This document shows positions 3,001 to 60,379 of a stretch of DNA of 64,000 bases, one piece after another; within the stretch, counting starts at the first letter, position 1, and every line of letters starts with the position of its first letter. Source of the DNA: a virus. The stretch lies in the IMG/VR virus record IMGVR_UViG_3300031705_000002, positions 30,958 through 94,957 of that record. The stretch is one strand, 5' to 3'. Position numbers and translations under genes: made by a program. The notes beneath the pieces were generated by a model. The model was not told where the DNA came from, made no database searches, and worked only from the letters and a program-made list of their open reading frames with translations.

Positions 3001-5958
3001 AGAAGATTGTACTCCCAGATAATCACTAGGATTATCAACCATAGGAATTACGTTGTTATTATCTCCATCGTTTATTTTAGGTAAGAATCCTGAATTATCC
3101 TCATTACCTGCAAGCCCTAAAGCTATATGGGTTTCTCCTCCTTGATTGTAAAGTTTATATCCAAATCCATGTCCAGAGGCATCTAAAATAGAATCACCAT
3201 TAACATAAGTTTTACACCTTTCTTTTAATAGTTTATATCTATCTCTAAAGTTGAATGCATATGACTCTGCCACAAAGAATTTAGAGTTTATTATCTCTAC
3301 ATCACAAGGGTCATTACTATTCTCATGGTGAGCTCCAGGCCCTTTAAACGTGTGGTATGTTGTTACCCACTGTGTAGAGATATGTGTAGCCGGAGAAATA
3401 CTTTTTTGAGTTCTAAGGAGTTCAAAATTATAAAACGCAAGCATTTGATAGTCCCTCCCATTATCAGGAGAAGTTGCTGTTAGATAGGAATCATTATATG
3501 TGAGTGGAGTTTTTATCCAAAAGTTTTGTAGAATACCTTCAGTACCGTCCGCATTTACTAAACACCCACCAAGCTGTCCTCTTACTTTATCATAAGGAGT
3601 TACTACTCCCTGGCCTAAAATTCTTTTATCCTCATGCTGTCTGTCCGCATAGTATATTCTAAACCCTTGAACTTTTTTAGCTATACTAGCTGGTATTTTT
3701 ATATTATCTAATGTGAACCCTAAAATCCGAATAGAGTCTGAGGTAGTACCTCCAGAAACAATTGCCTCTGAAGCTCCTGCTGTAGGGCTACTATATATAG
3801 TACCCTCCATATTATCGTCATTGTAAAAATTTAAATCGTTTGGAAAATTTGAATCTGTTTGGTGATACCCATAATCAGTATGTGTACCACTAAACCCAGC
3901 TTCTCCTAGGAATCCCCCCATCTGGGATTGACTATGATCAAATAAAGCCCACCCAGAATCTACATCTATTGCAATACATTCCGCTAAATATGTCCCTCCA
4001 GGATCTCCAAGCCAATTGGGTATTAGTAATGCGTCTACTTCCCATGCAATTACATATGTAGACCCCACTACTAAACCTCCAACATTACTTACATGATATG
4101 CTTCATGTTCGTTGGAAAAATCATTGCTGTCAGGTCCTAATAATGTACCATCTGCTAATACCCATACTATCTCAGTGTCCTCAATATTATTATTATTTGA
4201 GGCACCTCCAGAAATCTCAAATTCTATTTCCGGAAGTAGTATAGTCGCCGTAGTTATAGTAGACGTAGTACTGCCAGAGATAACTCTAAACGCTTCATTA
4301 TCATTTTTAGGAAAACGGTGATGTCTTACCTGTGCGGCAGACCCATTTGGATTCTTGTATACATCAGAGCTGAATGCCTCTGTATTAGGGTAGGTCTCAT
4401 GGGAGTTTTCCCAGTATTCCATATCGTTACTTCCGTCCTCTTCACTGTAACTTTTAAAATGGTAACTTTTTACTTCTCCTAAATTATTTAAATTACCAGC
4501 ATTGTATAACCCCGAATTTTCTAAGGGCCCTAACTCGGTTGAAATACTTTCACGTCCGGGTATGTGATAGGCATATGACATGCTACCATCATTTAAAATA
4601 AAAGATATGTAAAAGGCATAAACCTCACCTCTTGTGTACCCTCTCTTTTTATATGCATTATACGGGTCTCTATATCCGTTTGATTTATCTGCTACAAGAG
4701 GAGGCATTTCTATAAAGCCATGCTCCAAGTTATCGGAGATTAATGAGAACTCATCAAAATTAGAAACATCAATAATTTTAGGTCTAAGCTTAATATTCCC
4801 CGCACTCCTCTGGTACCCTACATCTAGATTTCTTGTTAGGTTACCTAGGTATAAAACATTATCTAATTGTGTGATTGTCTTAACAGTGTCGTACGATACA
4901 GTATCTATCACAATCTCATCCACTGATGAACTTGTGTACCCCTCTGTACCAGAGAACGTTAGCTCAAAGTCTGGACCATTTAGTTCTATCTCTATATCAT
5001 GCAGTTGAAAAGCAAATCTATTACCATCTAAATGTTGAATGATAGCAGGTCTTATATAATCATAATCCGTATTGTAATCGGAGATATTCCAAACGATAGA
5101 CTTACCTGTTTGTGTTCCGGGAGGTGCTCCATCATACCTTTCTATTGGTAGTACACTTTCTATATCGTCAACGATAGATACAGGATTATCCACTACTACA
5201 TAGTTAGTGGCAACTAAATCTTTATCTACATACGCTAAAGCTAAAGCATACGATCCCGACACTAGTCCTCCCCCAGAGATTACTTTCTGTAAATCTATCG
5301 TAGGAACTGGGCCTGCGTGTGGGAATAAGTTAAGTCTATCTATAAAATTCTTATTAATAGAATTCGCAGGGTACTTACCATAAAGTTGTTCGTAAGAACC
5401 TGTATCTGCAACCGCCTCTTCCTGTCTAGTTATGTTTAACGATCTTGGAGGATTAAAATTATCCGTCCAGTACACAACTAAATTCTCATTAGCATCAATT
5501 TTATATGTCCCTGATATAGGGTTCTTAGGAAGGAATTTTAAACTTACATCTATGATTTTACAGTTCTGGCCTTCAATCTCTATTGTAGGAAAGTTTAATA
5601 GAGTTTTGTATAGTAGCTCCTGATTCTCTCCGCCTGAAGGGGATAGCACACCTACTTCAGATCTTCCGTACTCTAAGGATTGAGATTCTGCAGGGTTAGC
5701 GGCAACAGAGAATACTACGATTCTATCATCAGTAATCTCTATGGTCCCTATAACTTTATACCCCTTGATAAAAGTGCCCGGACCACCACCAATCCTTTTA
5801 GCAGTTCTTCCAATAGGAGGACCTGCCTTATTACCTTCTTCGTTTCCAACTGTGCCATCTACTCTATTAACGACAGCATTTCTAGCATATCTCCACGACC
5901 CTTCAGGTTGATCAGAAGGAGAAGTGTCTCTTATAAGCCCTTTTATATATCTACTCAT
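1..5958 (-). CDS. Tail stabilisation / muzzle protein (crAss gp44-like, P22 gp10 family), >1985 aa, 3' end outside the window
   Basis: Not in the ORF track, consistent with no stop inside the window. ATG at 5958 overlaps the upstream TAA (TAATG). Hand translation gives MSRYIKGLIRDTSPSDQPEGSWRYARNAVVNRVDGTVGNEEGN, and later LGFTLDNIKIP...QGFRIYYADR...ILGQG, as in crAss muzzle proteins. Lies directly after a ring gene. Frame was spot-checked, not read codon by codon. Confidence 0.85.
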   Translation of the reverse strand, partial: MSRYIKGLIRDTSPSDQPEGSWRYARNAVVNRVDGTVGNEEGNKAGPPIGRTAKRIGGGPGTFIKGYKVIGTIEITDDRIVVFSVAANPAESQSLEYGRSEVGVLSPSGGENQELLYKTLLNFPTIEIEGQNCKIIDVSLKFLPKNPISGTYKIDANENLVVYWTDNFNPPRSLNITRQEEAVADTGSYEQLYGKYPANSINKNFIDRLNLFPHAGPVPTIDLQKVISGGGLVSGSYALALAYVDKDLVATNYVVVDNPVSIVDDIESVLPIERYDGAPPGTQTGKSIVWNISDYNTDYDYIRPAIIQHLDGNRFAFQLHDIEIELNGPDFELTFSGTEGYTSSSVDEIVIDTVSYDTVKTITQLDNVLYLGNLTRNLDVGYQRSAGNIKLRPKIIDVSNFDEFSLISDNLEHGFIEMPPLVADKSNGYRDPYNAYKKRGYTRGEVYAFYISFILNDGSMSYAYHIPGRESISTELGPLENSGLYNAGNLNNLGEVKSYHFKSYSEEDGSNDMEYWENSHETYPNTEAFSSDVYKNPNGSAAQVRHHRFPKNDNEAFRVISGSTTSTITTATILLPEIEFEISGGASNNNNIEDTEIVWVLADGTLLGPDSNDFSNEHEAYHVSNVGGLVVGSTYVIAWEVDALLIPNWLGDPGGTYLAECIAIDVDSGWALFDHSQSQMGGFLGEAGFSGTHTDYGYHQTDSNFPNDLNFYNDDNMEGTIYSSPTAGASEAIVSGGTTSDSIRILGFTLDNIKIPASIAKKVQGFRIYYADRQHEDKRILGQGVVTPYDKVRGQLGGCLVNADGTEGILQNFWIKTPLTYNDSYLTATSPDNGRDYQMLAFYNFELLRTQKSISPATHISTQWVTTYHTFKGPGAHHENSNDPCDVEIINSKFFVAESYAFNFRDRYKLLKERCKTYVNGDSILDASGHGFGYKLYNQGGETHIALGLAGNEDNSGFLPKINDGDNNNVIPMVDNPSDYLGVQSSTYTVNLEAFKTDVYNTVDSQNLIWTGFEIKGKNLENFIEDGGGDYAIGSLSGGRSLPGRKGKGKFRSTMPEIGEYSAEAGGIVYAHEYDPVNQGFSYWVFTKEDIHNSEGLSSGQVSGDPGTLDYTYFYSPASALLGITAFNSSGTALSLTGHTDWVVPDSVALGGWSDGFLQVGSDFHDVASDYFSMDVVPDWDGSGFPYVANTVNLGISTIKNHNYIGVQQVTIWDGLTDLSWLDLGTPFGVYAYTARSGHLSPVAYITPFSMVGPMSSVTLSCGTTYDSHPHAISGDGPDNPTINLTGYTEYASSGGENHPVHPQFGWYQNAGLANAASVCNSILEPGDTSGNTNFRDMSLTPSSSVLYPYRNLSELYIAPRYARLKGIRQHFLVPPVDDTVFGCTDSGALNYDPTATVDDGACEYEVVEIDCDDYIDDSPTGDATVILGGDTFICKYGFRQSLTPRISTYLPSDQVSVLYSIIESTDNVNFRHEEDVSTSYFPGSPMQKVALVDRDGKNFDLLNLFDFTGEDKIKYNPDYSIVNNVRPAFVLPNLITAPSVFTTRIQRSTKASRTSLIDNFRIYLSREQMDMPKNRGELWKLSTFNNLLYIHMEDSLLVTKGKQTMAMKDGSEAFIGSGDIFQQDPDELVQTEHGYGGTQSQYSTLVTKYGYFSVDERNKKIFMTTDKMTEISNLGMEKWFYNNLSNDKDSFSTLEFDYAQTLVDDEQYISAWGFRTSPYKDSPIVGKGFVSVWDEKYQRILLTKRALLFTDRGTFLRRKGGRNIPGGIVYNESTDVYSLLFKPSMNLISNGDFSHGNELVENTSFIHTDFTAGDNFPSSFFWLGSSDLVRTLTSNELKINYSTKGYIYQYFTLETGVLHTFELTWKGTNGVTVEVVGVGSILTTNAVEGTLTTVSENFSVPTTKVYELRIHGTSISTSDLYLSGTSLQRVAHPVWELDAGWSIRDYKITNDGTSDGYFSQNTQSSIGDRRLLTFTVQNCTAGTVS

Positions 5959-17726: not shown

Positions 17727-18755
17727 TTAAAATATTAAATAATTTATTCCCGTTTGCATATTATAAGATCTTATATCCCAGTACTTAAGGTGTCTTCCTT
17801 CTACGAAGATACTAAAATGTTTGTTAAATTTAACACCAAACACCACACCAATATCCCATTCCGTCGTTACCCCAGGGTATGAGTAGGAATATTCACTCAA
17901 ACCTTTATGTGCAGGATACACAGAACCCCATGCATGCATCCAAGACTTGCTTGAATAATGATAATAATCGGCTCCTACAACCATAGAAACTTCTTGTTGA
18001 AGACCCAAATCATTAAGTTGCTGATTGTTGTATTCGTTTACAGCATCCCCAAAATGATACGAGTAAAACTCAGGGTCTGACTCAGCGATAACTTCCCCTT
18101 CATGAGACCACACATGATTGTCATCATCAGTGTATCCAAACTCATTAGCTAGCTGCCACCAGTGTTTGTTCTCAGGCTTAGAGAACCATTCCTCTATTGG
18201 AGAGTATCCGTACACAGGGTGAGAACGATGGGCTACGCCTAAAGTAAGGTCGATATTACCAAAACTTTTACGTAGCCTAACCTCGCCCAGAGTATATTTA
18301 AGATTAATTAATCCGTCATCCACATACGAAGCTTTCGATGTTAGGTGATCAGATATGTATCTAACCTTATATTCTTGCTGTTTAAATTTCATCCCTCTAT
18401 TACGAATGGATGAGTACTTAAACAAGTACTCTAAACCAGGTGCGTTAGATATTGTAGCGTAATCGCTACTCTCGTCTTCTGAACCCGTGTAAAAATTACC
18501 CTGTTTTACCTGGTAATCAAAACGTGCTATCTTTCTAAGCCCTATTGTTATGTTATAATTAGGAGCGCTGACCTCAGTCATCTCAACAAGCTGTCCAGAG
18601 CCTGCAATCCCATCAACTATAAAAGCTTGATTCTCTGAGAAGGGTGCTGCCGTAGACATACTTGCATAGAATGTAGCAAACCTAAATAGGGAGAACCCCA
18701 TCTGAGCATTAGCAACCGTGCTAACAAACAGTAATATGTATAATAACTTCTTCAT
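17727..18755 (-). CDS. Putative outer-membrane beta-barrel protein
   Basis: Signal peptide ...ANA|Q; amphipathic aromatic strands; terminal TGINYLIF resembling a beta-signal. Confidence 0.6.
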   Translation of the reverse strand: MKKLLYILLFVSTVANAQMGFSLFRFATFYASMSTAAPFSENQAFIVDGIAGSGQLVEMTEVSAPNYNITIGLRKIARFDYQVKQGNFYTGSEDESSDYATISNAPGLEYLFKYSSIRNRGMKFKQQEYKVRYISDHLTSKASYVDDGLINLKYTLGEVRLRKSFGNIDLTLGVAHRSHPVYGYSPIEEWFSKPENKHWWQLANEFGYTDDDNHVWSHEGEVIAESDPEFYSYHFGDAVNEYNNQQLNDLGLQQEVSMVVGADYYHYSSKSWMHAWGSVYPAHKGLSEYSYSYPGVTTEWDIGVVFGVKFNKHFSIFVEGRHLKYWDIRSYNMQTGINYLIF

Positions 18756-54736: not shown

Positions 54737-54768
54737 AGAAAAGTCCCCATGAAGGGGACCTTTCTTTT
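54737..54768. terminator. Hairpin, possibly a bidirectional terminator
   Basis: AGAAAAGTCCCC-ATGAA-GGGGACCTTTCT followed by TTT. Confidence 0.5.
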
Positions 54769-55001
54769 AACCAAAAACCAAAAAACTATGAATTCACAAG
54801 AGTAGTGAAACACACAGCCGTAAGTATACAACTATTTTTTACATATACAAGGGGTTTTCAAAAAAAAAATAAAAAAAATTTATGTGCAGATGTATGAGTA
54901 GACCACTTATTAAACAGGCACCCCTACTAAATCGTGGGCGAAGGCCCCCCCGATTGATTTTAACAATCGCTCATTTGCAATTCAAACTTAAAAAAGTTCT
55001 C

Positions 55002-55301
55002 ATGGCTACACTCACGATAGTAAAAATCAAGATTACCGAGAAATCCAACACAGTCATCGTCTTAGCAGACGATTCCCGCGCTGAATTCTGCGGTATCCAA
55101 GCACGCTTGTATGGATCGCCTAAAAGCGACAATACAAGCTGTTGGATGTGCCTCGATGGCGACCATCTCAAGCACTTCGAGTCCATAAAGGACTCTCATG
55201 CTTTCGAGGTCAACCCTCGTGACATCTCTAAGCCCGACGAAGAGTCGGGACATAGAGGTGGATTCATCCACCCTGATGACATAAAGGTCATCAAGCTGTA
55301 A
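55002..55301 (+). CDS. First plus-strand early gene, hypothetical (99 aa)
   Basis: Internal ATG (MATLTIVK) with an A-rich leader is preferred over the track start at 54882; followed by a hairpin. Confidence 0.6.
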   Translation: MATLTIVKIKITEKSNTVIVLADDSRAEFCGIQARLYGSPKSDNTSCWMCLDGDHLKHFESIKDSHAFEVNPRDISKPDEESGHRGGFIHPDDIKVIKL

Positions 55302-55313
55302 GAACCACAGGAC

Positions 55314-55334
55314 TAAGAGAGCGTAGCTCTCTTA
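55314..55334 (+). terminator. Hairpin after the first early gene
   Basis: TAAGAGAGC-GTA-GCTCTCTTA, weak pyrimidine tail. Confidence 0.55.
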
Positions 55335-55401
55335 CTCCTTCATCAGATGAAGCATAATCTACGACACGATAATTAGTCTTTATTAACATAACATAGCTAA
55401 A

Positions 55402-55617
55402 ATGAAAACATCTATAACTGAAACAGAATTGTTCTACGTAACAGTATCTATAATGAATCTAGAGGCTAAGCTAAGCAGAAAGCTATGCACTGAGCATCCG
55501 TACTATAAGAAAAAGATAGAAATGATTACTGAATTAGGTAATCAAGGCTTAGACCTTGGAGACTTCATAGCTCTTGACAAGAAAGCTATTGAATACATTG
55601 CAAGACATAGTGATTAA
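55402..55617 (+). CDS. Hypothetical protein
   Basis: 71 aa; A-rich start context. Confidence 0.6.
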   Translation: MKTSITETELFYVTVSIMNLEAKLSRKLCTEHPYYKKKIEMITELGNQGLDLGDFIALDKKAIEYIARHSD

Positions 55618-55684
55618 CATAAGATGCTCCGATGATAGCTCAGGCTTAGGAGTTAGTCTTATTAACTTAAATAACTTAGAACAT

Positions 55685-55843
55685 ATGAGTAGATTTACTC
55701 TTACAATCATAGTAATATTAGCCATAATACTAACAGTTATGGTGTACACAATGTCTCATAGCGTAGAGATTAAGGCTTTAATAACCTTAATGGATTTACC
55801 TATCATAGTATTAATTGCACATCACTTAGCAACTGAAGAATAA
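55685..55843 (+). CDS. Small two-TM membrane protein (52 aa)
   Basis: Internal ATG of track ORF 55574-55843; two hydrophobic stretches. Confidence 0.5.
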   Translation: MSRFTLTIIVILAIILTVMVYTMSHSVEIKALITLMDLPIIVLIAHHLATEE

Positions 55844-55846
55844 GAT

Positions 55847-56041
55847 ATGGAAGTTACACTAGACAACTTCGTGGAAAACCTATCAACAATGGAGCTATTC
55901 TCATTCCACAAAGAATGTACAGATAGAATAGACTCAGCCAAAGAAGAAATCAAGATGGTCTCTTTACTACTACCTGCTTTAACAGCAGAGATAGAAACTC
56001 GTAAGAATGAATACGAGAAGGTTATGGATAGAGATTTATAA
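55847..56041 (+). CDS. Hypothetical helical protein
   Basis: 64-aa ORF. Confidence 0.6.
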   Translation: MEVTLDNFVENLSTMELFSFHKECTDRIDSAKEEIKMVSLLLPALTAEIETRKNEYEKVMDRDL

Positions 56042-56043
56042 CA

Positions 56044-56630
56044 ATACTGCTTACATCGGAACGCGCTTGGACTTTAATTAGGTTAAGAGAGTTAAAAAAC
56101 TGAGTTCGATGTAGGTATCTTATTAATGGGAAGCAGAGTTAGTAGGATAAAGCCCCAGAAAGCTCTGCCAACCATTTGATTTACTCTTGTCCAATCAGTG
56201 GGAAAGATATTACCGTTTGTAAAATGGCTCACTGTTAACCTCAAGAGGAACTGATCTAGAAATAGTTCAACCAGAGATAACATGCCCTTAAGGTTAATTA
56301 AAGTTAGAGTTGACTCTAACAGCCGCGATATACCATATCAAGGATCACAACCTTGCAAGAGTTTTTAGCTTAACTTTCTCGTGATATAGTTAACATGGGT
56401 ACATCCCTATCATCCACCGAGTTGAAAATATTCTATATCAGTACAAATGCTAAGTGCAAGAGTCATAACACGGTTGATCTCGTGAAATGACTGATAGAGA
56501 GAGTTTTATTATTATTCACTGTCTAATCTGCCCTTGAGGTGAAGTAGACTTAAGCGTGCAAGTCGTAGGTGATTATTAATTTAGAGGTATGGGTATATTC
56601 CCCATTAAGACATCTAGCGCACCTCTTAAC
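56044..56630 (+). ncRNA. Candidate large structured ncRNA (~590 nt)
   Basis: No plus-strand ORF of 60 aa or more in a gene-dense genome; many local and long-range helices with G-U pairs on the plus strand. Confidence 0.5.
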
Positions 56631-56720
56631 ATTAAACACACACCATGAAACAAGAAGCATACTTATCAGTAAAGAAAGCAATTAGAGAGTATAAACTAAG
56701 AACTAAACTAAACCCCTTCA

Positions 56721-56927
56721 ATGGTAACAATATCAAAGGAAGTAGCGGAGTTTCAACAGCTTCAGATAAAAGCACTGCAACAAGCAATAACAGACTTAAA
56801 AGATAAATTAGAAGAGCTTCACAAATATGGTGAACAGCTAATTTATGATGCAGATGGTGACAGTATGTATAATACAGGAGTAGGTATTATAAACATAATA
56901 GACAAAACCAAAGAGATAAACAAATAA
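56721..56927 (+). CDS. Hypothetical coiled-coil protein
   Basis: 68-aa ORF. Confidence 0.55.
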   Translation: MVTISKEVAEFQQLQIKALQQAITDLKDKLEELHKYGEQLIYDADGDSMYNTGVGIINIIDKTKEINK

Positions 56928-56935
56928 CAAAAGAT

Positions 56936-57109
56936 ATGGCACTTACTAAATCAGATTTAAAGAAAGAGTTGGTGGCTTATAAAAGACACCTAGCACACGA
57001 AATCACTCAAAACAGAGGAGGATTATTAAAGCTAAAACTACACGATGAGGTAGAGGCTACATTCAAAGAAATACAAAACTCATTAAGTAGATTAATACTT
57101 AAACTTTAA
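56936..57109 (+). CDS. Hypothetical protein (57 aa)
   Basis: Hand translation MALTKSDLKKELVAYKRH...RLILKL; fills the gap between neighbouring features. Confidence 0.55.
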   Translation: MALTKSDLKKELVAYKRHLAHEITQNRGGLLKLKLHDEVEATFKEIQNSLSRLILKL

Positions 57110-57155
57110 GAAACAGATGGTCAATAGAGAGGTTCGATTCCTCTCTGTTTCACTA
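57110..57155 (+). ncRNA. tRNA-like minihelix (acceptor stem plus T-arm only)
   Basis: GAAACAG/CTGTTTC 7-bp stem; AGAGG-TTCGATT-CCTCT T-arm; 3' ACTA. Confidence 0.65.
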
Positions 57156-57189
57156 ACAATCAATCAATTAATAAACTAAAGTAAATCAA

Positions 57190-57789
57190 ATGAACACAAC
57201 TGCACAATCAACAGCAATCATCACTGAAACTCCAAGAGTAGTAAGTGTAATGCCAACAAAGAACACTAAAGTATTCCAATTAGTGGTACGCTCAGAACGT
57301 GAGAAACCAATGAAGGAAGGTAACGATGGTGACTTTAACATATTTATGGCAGGATTCGCTGTAAATGAACCTGAAAGATTAATTGCTTACAGAACAGTAT
57401 CAGATCAATACTTAGACGCCTACGGCATATCATATGACGCAGTAACAGGAGATATACTTTCACCAGAAGGATATACTACTCTTCAAGGTCTAAAACGTCA
57501 AAACACTGACGAAACATTTCCAGATGTACACCCAGAGTGTAAGATTTCGGTAAATGAAACATTTGAGGCTAGAACTTGGGTAGGGAATGACGGTAGTAAA
57601 AAGAGTCAAAACCCTAAGATTAACCCTAAAACAAAGGAAACACTCTACAATAAAGGTAGAGCTATCTATTTGAACAGAACACTAACGTTTGATACCACTA
57701 AAGAGGATGTATACATCACTCATGATGGTTCAACACCTACTCAAGCAGTAGAAATAGTAGGTTCTGAGTTCGGAATACTTAACGCATAG
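57190..57789 (+). CDS. Conserved crAss-like early protein, possible ssDNA-binding protein
   Basis: PKINP.T.E.L...G..IY...D..I.HD pattern; strong A-rich leader and downstream hairpin. Confidence 0.5.
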   Translation: MNTTAQSTAIITETPRVVSVMPTKNTKVFQLVVRSEREKPMKEGNDGDFNIFMAGFAVNEPERLIAYRTVSDQYLDAYGISYDAVTGDILSPEGYTTLQGLKRQNTDETFPDVHPECKISVNETFEARTWVGNDGSKKSQNPKINPKTKETLYNKGRAIYLNRTLTFDTTKEDVYITHDGSTPTQAVEIVGSEFGILNA

Positions 57790-57811
57790 TAATTAGTTTG
57801 AATGGCTAATG

Positions 57812-57853
57812 ATAAGAATGGGGAGGAATATGAGAACTCCTCCTCACTCTTAT
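57812..57853 (+). terminator. Hairpin after the 199-aa gene
   Basis: ATAAGAATGGGGAGGA...TCCTCCTCACTCTTAT imperfect stem. Confidence 0.5.
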
Positions 57854-57889
57854 ATTAATAGCTAAAAACAACACCTAAACAAAAAACCA

Positions 57890-58147
57890 ATGGCAACTTC
57901 TACAATTGCATTAATAACGATACTAATATGTATCGTAATAATAGCTTATTTATCAGTTATAGTATCTAGCAGAATAACAAGGCTAGAAACAGAACTAAAC
58001 CAAGCAGTTTGGGCATTAAATCAGAAGATGCTTAAGAATCTAGGCTCAATACATAGACTTGAGTTCATACTTGAGCCTAAGCCTAAATTAGATAAGCCTA
58101 AAGCTAAAAGAGGTAGACCAAGAAAGAAACAACCTCTTGGAGAGTAA
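57890..58147 (+). CDS. Membrane-anchored protein with an AT-hook-like KRGRPRK tail
   Basis: N-terminal TM helix, coiled coil, KRGRPRKK. Confidence 0.6.
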   Translation: MATSTIALITILICIVIIAYLSVIVSSRITRLETELNQAVWALNQKMLKNLGSIHRLEFILEPKPKLDKPKAKRGRPRKKQPLGE

Positions 58148-58475
58148 TAAAGAGTTTGTAACTCGTATGTATTTACTTACACAGGAGTTACCAAAGGATA
58201 AGATTGAGGACTATGAAAATACCCTCTCTCTTCTTTCTTTTCAACTCAAGTTAAGAGAGATGGACATAGTTAAAGAGGCTGCTGATAATTTAAGTAGACT
58301 TATATCACTATCTACCATCTATTCTAAATCTAAAAAGTACTTGTTAAATGAAATCGAATTCTTTAAAGGACAGAGTAAATATTCTATCCAGATTCCAGAC
58401 AATAACCCAAACGAGGTGGAAGAAATATTGGGCAGCACGAGAGATAAAGAAGTTGATGAAACTATTAAATCTTAA
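58137..58475 (+). CDS. Hypothetical protein
   Basis: 112 aa; TTG start overlapping the upstream gene. Confidence 0.55.
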   Translation: MESNKEFVTRMYLLTQELPKDKIEDYENTLSLLSFQLKLREMDIVKEAADNLSRLISLSTIYSKSKKYLLNEIEFFKGQSKYSIQIPDNNPNEVEEILGSTRDKEVDETIKS

Positions 58476-58480
58476 ACTAA

Positions 58481-60379
58481 ATGATCAAGTTCGTAGGAAA
58501 TCCAAGGTTAGTTGATTGTTGTGAAGTAAGCACAATCGATGAAGCAGTGGCATACTGTGAATCTAAATCAATACTAGGAGTAGACACAGAGACAACAGGT
58601 CTTAACTTCATGGAATCAGAGATGACCATGCTACAAATAGGTGATGAAGATACACAGTTTGTTATTGACACACGAGCTGTAAATATTATCCCCCTGAAGA
58701 AGGTACTTGAGAACAAGCATATTACAAAAGTATTGCACAATGTTAAGTTTGACTACAAATTCTTATTAAAGAATGGTATAAGACTGAACAATGTATGGGA
58801 TACTATGCTTGCCTCTCAAGTATTAAATTGTGGGAAACAAGTATCACACAGCTTAAGCAACTTAGTCTCTTCTCATCTACATATTGAAATGAGTAAAGAG
58901 ATAAGAACTACATTTATAGGTTATACTGGGGAATTCACAGAGTCTCAAATAGTATATGGAGCTAAAGATGTAGAGTATCTATTAAATTTGCAAGCGTTGC
59001 AGATTAAATACATTGAAGATTTGGACATGGTAATGCTGATGCAGTTAGAGAACGACGCATCATTAGCTTATGGTGACATAGAATTCAATGGTATTGCATT
59101 AGATATACCACGATGGAATGAGTTAGCACTAGATGCAGAGAAATCTAGAGTTGAGATGGAACACACATTAGATGACTTCGTCAAAACTAAAGAATCTCTA
59201 TCTCAATTTAATGCTACACACTTCCAAACAGACATGTTCATGGAAGACACAGACATCCGTAAGATTGATGTGAAATGGACATCACCTAAACAAGTGTTGA
59301 ATGTATTTAACACTTATGGCATTGATGTAGAAGATGTGAATGCAAATACACTACTTCCATTTAGAAAGGATGAGTTTATTGACATTTATATTAAATACAA
59401 AGAACAAGCAAAGCTATCCACAAGCTATGGAGATAAGTTCCTACAAAATGTAGACTCAGATAACAGAGTTAGAACAAACTTCAAGCAAATACTTAACACA
59501 GGTAGGATAGCTTCATCATCACCTAATATGCAACAGATACCAGCTAACAACAAGTATCGTAATTGTTTTATATCAGGTAATAGTGATTGGGTATTTGTAT
59601 CAAGTGATTATTCTTCACAAGAATTAGCAATTATAGCAACAGGTAGTAAAGATCCTGTATGGCTTAAAGCGTTAGAAGAAGGTAAGGATCTTCACAGTGT
59701 ATGTGCAGCATTAGTATATGGTGACAAATGGAGGGATGCAGCTGAAGTTGGTTGCTCTTATTATGCGTATGCTAATTTAGGTGGAGGCACAGAGCGTGCG
59801 CAACTTAAATGCAAGTGCAAGGAACACAAGAAACTCAGAACAAATGTTAAATCAATTAACTTTGGTTTAGCTTATGGTATGGGTCCAATGAAACTTGCAG
59901 ATACACTACTCATTTCAGAGAAAGCAGCAGAGAGGTTAATCAAAGACTATTTCAAAGCATTTCCCTCAATTGAGAACTTCCTTAAAAACTTAGGTACCTA
60001 CGGACTACAAACAGGACATATCAAAACATATGCTCCTTATCGTAGAATGAGATGGTTCCCAGAGTGGAGGGGTTATGAAACTCCTCAAAAGGATAAAGGT
60101 AAAATTGAACGTGCAAGTAAGAACACACCAATTCAAGGTAGTGGAGCTGATATGTGTAAATCAGCATTAGTATTAGTGCGTGATTACATATATGAGAACG
60201 ACTACCCTGCTAAAATAGTAATGACTGTACACGATCAAATTGATACTATAGTTAGAACTGATAAAGCAGAGGAGTGGTGTAGCATATTTCAAGGATTAAT
60301 GGAACAGTCTACTCTAGAGATAATACCTTCGGGTTTATTGAAAGCAGACACAAACATAAGCCAGACATGGGAAAAATAG
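58481..60379 (+). CDS. polA: Family A DNA polymerase with 3'-5' exonuclease
   Basis: Exo motifs DTETTG, HNVKFD, YGAKD; motif A DYSSQE; motif B R..VKSINFGLAYG; motif C VHDQ. Confidence 0.96.
   Translation: MIKFVGNPRLVDCCEVSTIDEAVAYCESKSILGVDTETTGLNFMESEMTMLQIGDEDTQFVIDTRAVNIIPLKKVLENKHITKVLHNVKFDYKFLLKNGIRLNNVWDTMLASQVLNCGKQVSHSLSNLVSSHLHIEMSKEIRTTFIGYTGEFTESQIVYGAKDVEYLLNLQALQIKYIEDLDMVMLMQLENDASLAYGDIEFNGIALDIPRWNELALDAEKSRVEMEHTLDDFVKTKESLSQFNATHFQTDMFMEDTDIRKIDVKWTSPKQVLNVFNTYGIDVEDVNANTLLPFRKDEFIDIYIKYKEQAKLSTSYGDKFLQNVDSDNRVRTNFKQILNTGRIASSSPNMQQIPANNKYRNCFISGNSDWVFVSSDYSSQELAIIATGSKDPVWLKALEEGKDLHSVCAALVYGDKWRDAAEVGCSYYAYANLGGGTERAQLKCKCKEHKKLRTNVKSINFGLAYGMGPMKLADTLLISEKAAERLIKDYFKAFPSIENFLKNLGTYGLQTGHIKTYAPYRRMRWFPEWRGYETPQKDKGKIERASKNTPIQGSGADMCKSALVLVRDYIYENDYPAKIVMTVHDQIDTIVRTDKAEEWCSIFQGLMEQSTLEIIPSGLLKADTNISQTWEK

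Follow-up and report, generated by a model that had tools for sequence, protein, structure and literature searches.

A head-to-tail array of predicted RNA modules at the border of the small early genes and the replication genes of an uncultured marine crAss-like phage

The DNA analyzed here, referred to as the window, is a stretch of 64,000 nucleotides that forms the final 64 kb of a 94,957-bp IMG/VR record with a completeness rating of complete. Its source is an uncultured marine crAss-like phage with a complete genome of ~95 kb, the likely hosts of which are Flavobacteriia. The virion genes are long and lie on the minus strand, and the plus-strand arm carries PolA, a helicase, and PhoH. The PolA of the window shares 25-31% identity with those of crAss001, IAS virus, and further Crassvirales, the relatives at about 45-96% PolA identity being uncultured viral contigs; metagenome copies include Tara Oceans scaffolds. 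A long ORF-free stretch sits in the plus-strand arm, ~1.2 kb past the divergent promoter region, within the same-strand gene order small-ORF block, RNA array, 199-aa protein, PolA, and helicase. The replication-module neighbors of the array are an AAA_24 ATPase, PolA, and the helicase. In the divergent region between the arms, a 12-bp GC-rich palindromic hairpin with T-runs on both strands (54737-54765) resembles a bidirectional terminator.

On the 5' side, a small early ORF of 64 aa (55847-56041, plus strand) ends with its stop codon 2 nt ahead of the non-coding chain. Its homologues show 72-74% amino acid identity in contigs L058 and L051 and 43% in L057 and L063, and in each of them the module that we call dom5 directly follows. 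On the 3' side lies an ORF of 53 aa (56645-56806, plus strand), the first ATG of which is 17 nt past the last module, H; it is overlapped by an ORF of 68 aa (56721-56927, plus strand) with a weak PHROG match to phrog_3550 (E = 2.8e-4). Farther 3' of the array, a 57-aa ORF (56936-57109) has a homologue of 68% amino acid identity at L057:2133-2331, where it lies 5' of dom5, indicating that genes have been rearranged around the RNA modules. A tRNA-like minihelix with a 7-bp acceptor stem and the T-arm GGTTCGATTCC is located directly after a stop codon at 57110-57155, 480 nt 3' of the array; it also occurs at L056:761-791 and L033:10354-10381 and is 86-90% conserved among distant relatives. Since it carries A3-U70, it is not an acceptor of the alanine/tmRNA type, and a search of 55000-58000 against Rfam at E <= 10 returned only a 17-nt T-arm match there (57128-57144).

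Between the stop at 56041 and the ATG at 56645 (56042-56644), we found no ORF of at least 64 aa under table 11, TAG=Q, or table 4, which bears out the ~590-nt ORF-free region described in a first-pass annotation of the sequence; neither alternative code opens a reading frame across the stretch. The longest frame in this interval has 63 aa and is on the minus strand (88 aa under table 4). Within the stretch, the AT skew is about 0.08, compared with 0.2-0.4 on either side. Small-protein genes were rejected because no frame is kept open across homologues: dom5 has at least one stop in each of the six frames in every homologue, all frames of the module core are stopped in nearly all homologues, and the indels among dom5 homologues are not multiples of three. 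Compared with shuffled sequences, the 587-nt stretch had MFE z-scores of -2.1 on the plus strand and -2.05 on the minus strand. The folding check proposed by the annotation thus came out better than shuffled sequence, with a modest z of about -2. The plus-strand values for the individual modules were -2.6 for pre, -2.0 for dom5, -3.0 for mid, -0.5 for core, and -1.2 for H.

Searches with Rfam 15 by cmscan gave no relevant match in the whole window at the gathering score or in 55000-58000 and 56040-56640 (601 nt) at E <= 10, and weak matches to S4-Bacteroidia, miRNA, and snoRNA models were judged to be noise. ARAGORN reported no tRNA or tmRNA genes in the window. A tmRNA was rejected on this result together with the Rfam match, a T-arm fragment only, and the nearby minihelix, which has A3-U70 and not G3.U70. 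Likewise, a group I/II intron was dismissed because no Rfam model matched, the ORFs on both sides are complete and unrelated, and no fused ORF occurs in relatives without the modules. The earlier remark that no signature of RNase P, tmRNA, or group I/II introns is visible was confirmed in this way. The pistol model (RF02679) found no covariance-model match in the window, and the Rfam models of hammerhead, twister, twister-sister, hatchet, hairpin, and HDV-like ribozymes had no match at E <= 10. No match to the region was found by blastn in 50,697 GenBank phage records. The exact two-block patterns of core and dom5 were absent from 185,579 prokaryote species genomes, so that at the exact-pattern level a mimic of a host RNA is unsupported.

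Homologous loci were obtained via PolA, via exact conserved words in IMG/VR, and from one metagenome scan, and were compared by blastn and nhmmer; for the first 17-mer used, 7 of the 16 matches were chance occurrences in coding DNA. The comparison divides the stretch into five plus-strand modules, the limits of the homology blocks being 56044-56175 (pre), 56176-56368 (dom5), 56369-56513 (mid), 56514-56580 (core), and 56581-56632 (H); the coordinates given below for dom5, mid, core, and H are those of the folded units. The first, pre (56044-56175), consists of two hairpins at about 56048-56118 and 56126-56175 and was found only in the window and in the identical metagenome contig L061. In L051, L063, and L042, the ORF stop is followed by dom5 directly, with no pre. 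The idea that pre acts as an antisense RNA at multiple sites across the other four modules, all 3' of it, was rejected because the duplex energies equal those of shuffled sequences.

Module dom5 (about 56183-56362, plus strand) is a multi-helix element closed by helix P1 (56183-56189/56356-56362), which is followed by an invariant UUUU tract. Two near-invariant blocks, of 37 nt on the 5' side and 84 nt on the 3' side, enclose a hypervariable arm, and the 3' block contains hairpins at 56303-56320 and 56339-56355. We collected dom5 from 18 contigs, representing 13 distinct sequences of 135-205 nt, and their arms fall into five unrelated classes with lengths from 14 to about 85 nt. In the dom5 model, 96.7% of cells are paired, compared with at most 48% when the partners are slid, and compensatory change is seen in four pairs of P1 and of the arm's apical hairpin, a number that 7 of 500 shuffles reach. 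For example, P1 reads ACUCUUG/CAAGAGU in the window and ACUCUCG/UGAGAGU in L042, and the apical hairpin is UGCUA-GAAA-UAGCA in one class of arm and CGUUAC-AAU-GUAACG in another; C/U exchanges opposite G occur as well. An initial alifold-derived structure of dom5 had given no significant covariation because nearly all of its paired columns never vary. As the paired columns are mostly invariant, the interior of dom5 is compatible with the structure, and the alternative pairings GUGGG/CUCAC and GGG/CCC were indistinguishable. Several resemblances were considered. The reading of the 5' block as a promoter (TTG-N21-TACCGTTTG) was rejected on account of a spacing that is wrong for a TAnnTTTG box. 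Those noticed by eye were a likeness to loop B of the hairpin ribozyme (GAUAUUACC / CCAGAGAUAACA), group I P/Q/R/S-like words, a GAAA tetraloop/receptor pair, and the 23S rRNA word GCUCACUG. None was upheld, as the words are present in some arm classes only, the helices needed are not formed, and there is no match to the Rfam models.

Module mid (about 56372-56505, plus strand) is a three-way junction closed by AACUUUCUC/GAGAGAGUU, and it is shared only with four other contigs (L048, L056/L062, and L063) at about 83% identity. In its variable hairpin, pairing at the base is kept by means of two compensatory pairs (GAUAUAG/CUAUAUC versus GAUAUUA/UAAUAUC), while the apex is swapped.

Module core (about 56513-56575, plus strand) has a helix P1 (56513-56520/56568-56575) stacked on P2, plus a mini-hairpin P3; in the covariation model, P2 is a long irregular hairpin (56521-56532/56538-56549) and P3 has 2 bp (56555-56556/56564-56565). 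Across 15 distinct sequences and 20 pairs, pairing was 96.7%, compared with 31-50% with the partners slid, and compensatory change was present in six pairs (4 of 500 shuffles get there). The internal-loop bases are invariant. Three wobble positions are invariantly U.G or G.U, while at a fourth 11 sequences have U.G and the other 4 have U-A; because these pairs would be A.C on the opposite strand, they place the RNA on the plus strand. The core covariance model R1 gave scores of 78-99 bits. A kissing pair between loops L2 and L3 (CUUG/CAAG) was also considered and is weakened by the variants L066 and L068.

Module H (about 56582-56627, plus strand) is the best-supported motif of the locus. It comprises a closing helix (56582-56588/56621-56627), a 2-nt 5' loop, an 18-nt invariant 3' internal loop (UAAGACAUCUAGCGCACC), and a variable hairpin with a GGG/CCC base. 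The exact 18-mer is present in 24 IMG/VR contigs. Among 16 distinct sequences, the covariation score of H was 0.443, compared with 0.110 +/- 0.030 in shuffles, with up to four Watson-Crick pair types per position in the closing helix and a change of the inner helix from GGG/CCC to GUGA/UCAC in L075. In many homologues, a U-rich tract lies directly 3' of H. Each of six records examined, namely the window genome and five other large records, holds one strong match to H, and the genes around H are unrelated between loci. A second match to the H model in the structural arm of the window (18427-18522, minus strand; G000:49384-49479) scored 19 bits with E = 0.025 and is probably noise. In L058, a weak tRNA-model match of 100 nt between core and H (L058:3172-3271; 23 bits against a gathering score of 29) may be a tRNA-like insert or noise.

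Overall, dom5, core, and H appear to be three separate motif families confined to phages and uncatalogued, as judged by their absence from Rfam 15 and from the GenBank phages and prokaryote genomes searched. Each combines covarying helices around long invariant loops with a defined site at which a variable hairpin is inserted. Compensatory changes are present in helices of all three.

Most of the local hairpins listed in that annotation have a place in this scheme. Those at 56050/56105, GCAGAGUU/AGCUCUGC, and AGUCAU/AUGACU are present; GUUAGAG/CUCUAAC and CAAGG/CCUUG are present and fit every homologue, being mostly invariant; and AGAGGU/ACCUCU is retained with compensatory changes. CAGUGGG/CUCACUG is retained in two of the five arm classes but not in the others, and GACUU/AAGUC clashes with the covariation-supported GUCU/AGAC helix of core and is not retained in homologues. 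The long-range crossing pairs fared worse: four of the five involve 56044-56175, a segment missing from all homologues, and the fifth (56239/56533) uses a variable arm class seen in two sequences only. Moreover, the duplex energies of pre with the downstream modules equaled those of dinucleotide shuffles (sum z = -0.23), only H reaching -1.9. The candidate large ncRNA put forward at that stage is therefore supported as a non-coding, structured, conserved, RNA-like region but not as one ornate ROOL/GOLLD-class molecule of ~590 nt. All parts are self-closed by terminal helices of their own, they occur alone or permuted, and the first 132 nt are specific to this phage; with long-range pairs at chance and modules self-closed, the picture of one ornate RNA is unsupported.

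The arrangement of the modules differs among relatives. The order dom5-core without mid is found in L042 and L053, H-dom5-mid-core in L048 and L056, and core-dom5 in L059. In addition, dom5 stands alone in L049, L055, L057, and L060, core stands alone in L033, and H stands alone in about 20 unrelated contexts. In L045, L043, and L032, core occurs by itself at a different site, right after the helicase stop codon, where it heads another ORF-free stretch of ~780 nt. This stretch 3' of the helicase (L045:5934-6712 and L043:117-650) is possibly a further non-coding RNA region, and the similarity of L043 to L045 (79% identity over 379 nt) starts just 5' of core and reaches into this stretch. In most loci, the first module starts 1-10 nt past the upstream stop codon, and all modules are sense to the flanking ORFs. 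A comparison of L033 and L042 shows dom5 absent in one and present in the other precisely between the ORF stop and core. The 95-kb window genome has a single copy of every module as judged by nhmmer, and core and H were single-copy in the records checked with covariance models. The modules are dispensable, since core was absent from all five near-complete relatives tested.

Sequence conservation of the modules does not follow that of the surrounding genes. The window and L053 have PolA proteins of 50% amino acid identity and 199-aa proteins with no detectable similarity, yet the dom5 3' block is 95% identical over 82 nt and core is 89% identical over 80 nt. L053 and L057 share 82 nt at 100% identity, with unrelated neighboring genes, and L051 and L058 share 281 nt (the dom5 3' block, a "mid" of their own, and core) at 99.3%, their proteins being 72-79% identical to those of the window. 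While the PolA of the window is 96% identical to that of L051, its mid is of the type carried by phages with only 45-50% identical PolA, which argues that the cassettes have been exchanged horizontally. An 11-nt direct repeat, TTACATTATAA, brackets the 56-nt core at L045:5864-5941, and its first copy consists of the last codons and the stop of the helicase gene; it looks like an insertion footprint, possibly a target-site duplication. The non-coding status of the array, its conservation, the covariation of its helices, its strand, its modularity, and its copy number are all direct observations.

We propose that the locus is a head-to-tail array of five independently folding, exchangeable RNA modules that act on the fate of the early transcript, a tentative reading that we favor and to which we give slightly less than an even chance. 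We infer that the array is transcribed in the sense direction as part of an early operon, at the border of the small early genes and the replication genes, and that it has a partner and a role in processing. The modules are gained, lost, reordered, and swapped between distantly related phages. They would act in cis on the RNA that carries them and would determine the sites of cleavage, termination, or protection in the polycistronic early transcript; a conserved protein or a catalytic partner might read the invariant loops. Co-transcription with the early genes is the simplest arrangement given the lack of a promoter motif belonging to the array: a Bacteroidetes-type TAnnTTTG box was absent from the plus strand of 54990-58744, and sigma-70-like sites were at chance level (11 versus 9.9 expected). 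The plus strand also has no terminator-like site inside the region. The cis role is suggested by the sense orientation, the fit between stop and start codons, the absence of own promoters, the U-rich tails after many H copies, and the company of pistol ribozymes and minihelices. Pistol ribozymes were identified in the same early operon of relatives at L058:2159-2224 (73.4 bits) and L053:4036-4097 (57.4 bits), both above the gathering score of 34.5, the L058 copy, at least, being intergenic. The same transcript-fate role is suggested for the pistol ribozymes and the tRNA-like minihelices in the operons of relatives. Two features speak against punctuation in cis, namely that the loops are conserved far beyond the needs of an RNase or terminator hairpin, so that a trans-acting RNA, an aptamer, or a ribozyme fits at least as well, and that a single copy is unusual for generic punctuation signals.

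The main rival to cis-acting cassettes is that the modules are stable small RNAs released from the early transcript, which act in trans by binding a conserved partner of the host or phage and thereby serve as decoys, mimics, or regulators. We consider this rather unlikely but of appreciable weight. Such RNAs would account for long invariant loops that persist across phages with PolA only 45-55% identical and for one copy per genome in unrelated gene contexts, a distribution that is gene-like rather than signal-like. The invariant UUUU after dom5 P1 points the same way, as do the early intergenic RNAs of phage phi14:2, which are described as abundant and persisting late (Drobysheva et al., bioRxiv 10.1101/2020.03.07.982082); our searches place a tmRNA gene at one of them. 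However, neither a promoter motif nor a terminator belonging to the modules was found in the window, the modules abut one another and the flanking ORFs, and the lack of an exact-pattern counterpart among the prokaryote species genomes leaves no obvious host RNA to be mimicked.

There is an outside chance that at least one of H, core, and dom5 is a new self-cleaving ribozyme or a ligand- or protein-sensing switch that cuts or gates early transcripts. This idea follows the discovery logic of pistol, hatchet, and twister-sister, in which conserved motifs were sought beside known ribozymes. The candidates are H, with its 18-nt invariant loop between two covarying helices, core, with its compact three-helix form, and dom5.

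It is improbable that the modules work at the DNA level, as single-stranded DNA hairpins that serve as replication signals (origin or priming) or as recombination joints and are transcribed incidentally. The location beside PolA, the helicase, and the AAA_24 ATPase, the single copy per genome, the near-identical blocks at mosaic joints, and the 11-nt duplication around the L045 core would suit such elements, and the virion RNA polymerase of phi14:2 is described as acting on single-stranded DNA (bioRxiv 10.1101/2020.03.07.982082). Nevertheless, core keeps G.U at three positions invariantly and mostly at a fourth, pairs that have little stability in DNA and would read as A.C on the complementary strand. 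Moreover, the modules invariably run in the direction of transcription and fit precisely into the gap between a stop and a start codon, and neither iterons nor AT-rich unwinding tracts were seen by sequence inspection and in the single-copy nhmmer result. The conserved G.U pairs and the constant sense orientation thus make a DNA-level role less likely.

That the whole ~590 nt forms one large ornate RNA of the ROOL/GOLLD class held by long-range pairs is highly improbable: the modules are contiguous and only 2-6 nt apart, the whole region has an MFE z of -2.1, and GOLLD-type RNAs are themselves partly modular, but no ROOL, GOLLD, or other Rfam match appeared even at E <= 10 on the 601 nt, the long-range pairs are unconserved and at chance level, and each module has its own closing helix, stands alone, and takes a permuted order in relatives.

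The crAss-like phages are among the most abundant viruses known, and their early regions repeatedly prove to hold non-coding RNA islands, those of phi14:2 being highly expressed. The present locus adds three delimited families with covariation support, dom5, core, and H, that lie outside Rfam. Their clear borders and natural variants make them ready candidates for experimental tests, including tests of self-cleavage. The locus also offers a concrete case of RNA cassettes exchanged between phages with polymerases only about 50% identical, and if the modules are indeed processing or gating elements, they would show how the early-to-replication transition in this phage order is organized at the level of RNA.

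One of the closest settings described is that of phi14:2, a cultured marine crAss-like phage of Cellulophaga, in which the transcripts of two long intergenic regions among the early genes exceed those of most genes and are still present late in infection; the preprint calls their functions "to be determined" (Drobysheva et al., bioRxiv 10.1101/2020.03.07.982082). Both phages are marine and crAss-like and have long ORF-free stretches among small early genes, and those of phi14:2 are reported there to be transcribed in the gene direction. In contrast to the phage studied here, phi14:2 is a PolB phage and belongs to a different family; a tmRNA gene, which the window lacks, lies in one of its early intergenic regions, and its non-coding regions showed no sequence or model similarity to the modules. 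In the phi14:2 genome (L065; NC_021806), we observed this tmRNA at 4031-4500, both by ARAGORN (tag GSSVQKLAMVA) and as a full-length match to Rfam RF00023 (46 bits, E = 1e-16). It falls within the g004-g006 intergenic stretch, which the passages of the preprint on this stretch call an abundant stable ncRNA without naming a tmRNA (bioRxiv 10.1101/2020.03.07.982082). ROOL (RF03087) and GOLLD (RF02032) are likewise phage-borne, helix-rich, and hundreds of nucleotides long, whereas they have one conserved architecture, and the units here are separable, reordered between genomes, and free of any covariance-model match.

Pistol RNAs are reported to concentrate in the vicinity of phage genes and of other ribozymes (Weinberg et al. 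2015, as cited in Harris et al. 2015, PMC4604425). Phage neighborhoods with pistol, hatchet, twister-sister, or hammerhead RNAs resemble the array in that small structured RNAs occupy intergenic gaps of operons, and different motif classes lie close together, each usually once, with covarying stems and invariant loops (PMC4604425). Genuine pistols occur in the same operon of the relatives L058 and L053. Unlike in those neighborhoods, no module matches a catalogued ribozyme model and the window is without a pistol; small nucleolytic ribozymes are also smaller than dom5 (135-205 nt).

The PeSL elements of T4-type phages are many-copy units, each composed of a strong promoter and a terminator hairpin (Arbiol et al. 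2010, PMC2839356). They share with the modules a placement as short conserved non-coding units at joints of small early genes, near-identity between diverged phages, and a tie to modular shuffling (PMC2839356). Unlike PeSL, however, the modules are single-copy, have no promoter motif that we could find, and adopt complex predicted folds with invariant loops. With regard to the terminator of PeSL, the region contains no plus-strand terminator-like site, and many H homologues are followed by a U-rich tract. Finally, lambda nut and HK022 put are sense RNA hairpins with conserved unpaired bases that occur once or twice in a genome, at positions between the early genes and the operons 3' of them. 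The modules bear no sequence resemblance to these lambdoid antitermination RNAs, and the early polymerase and factors of crAss-like phages differ; by analogy, however, they may be comparable in their low copy number, sense orientation, and conserved unpaired bases, with H often leading into a U-rich tract.
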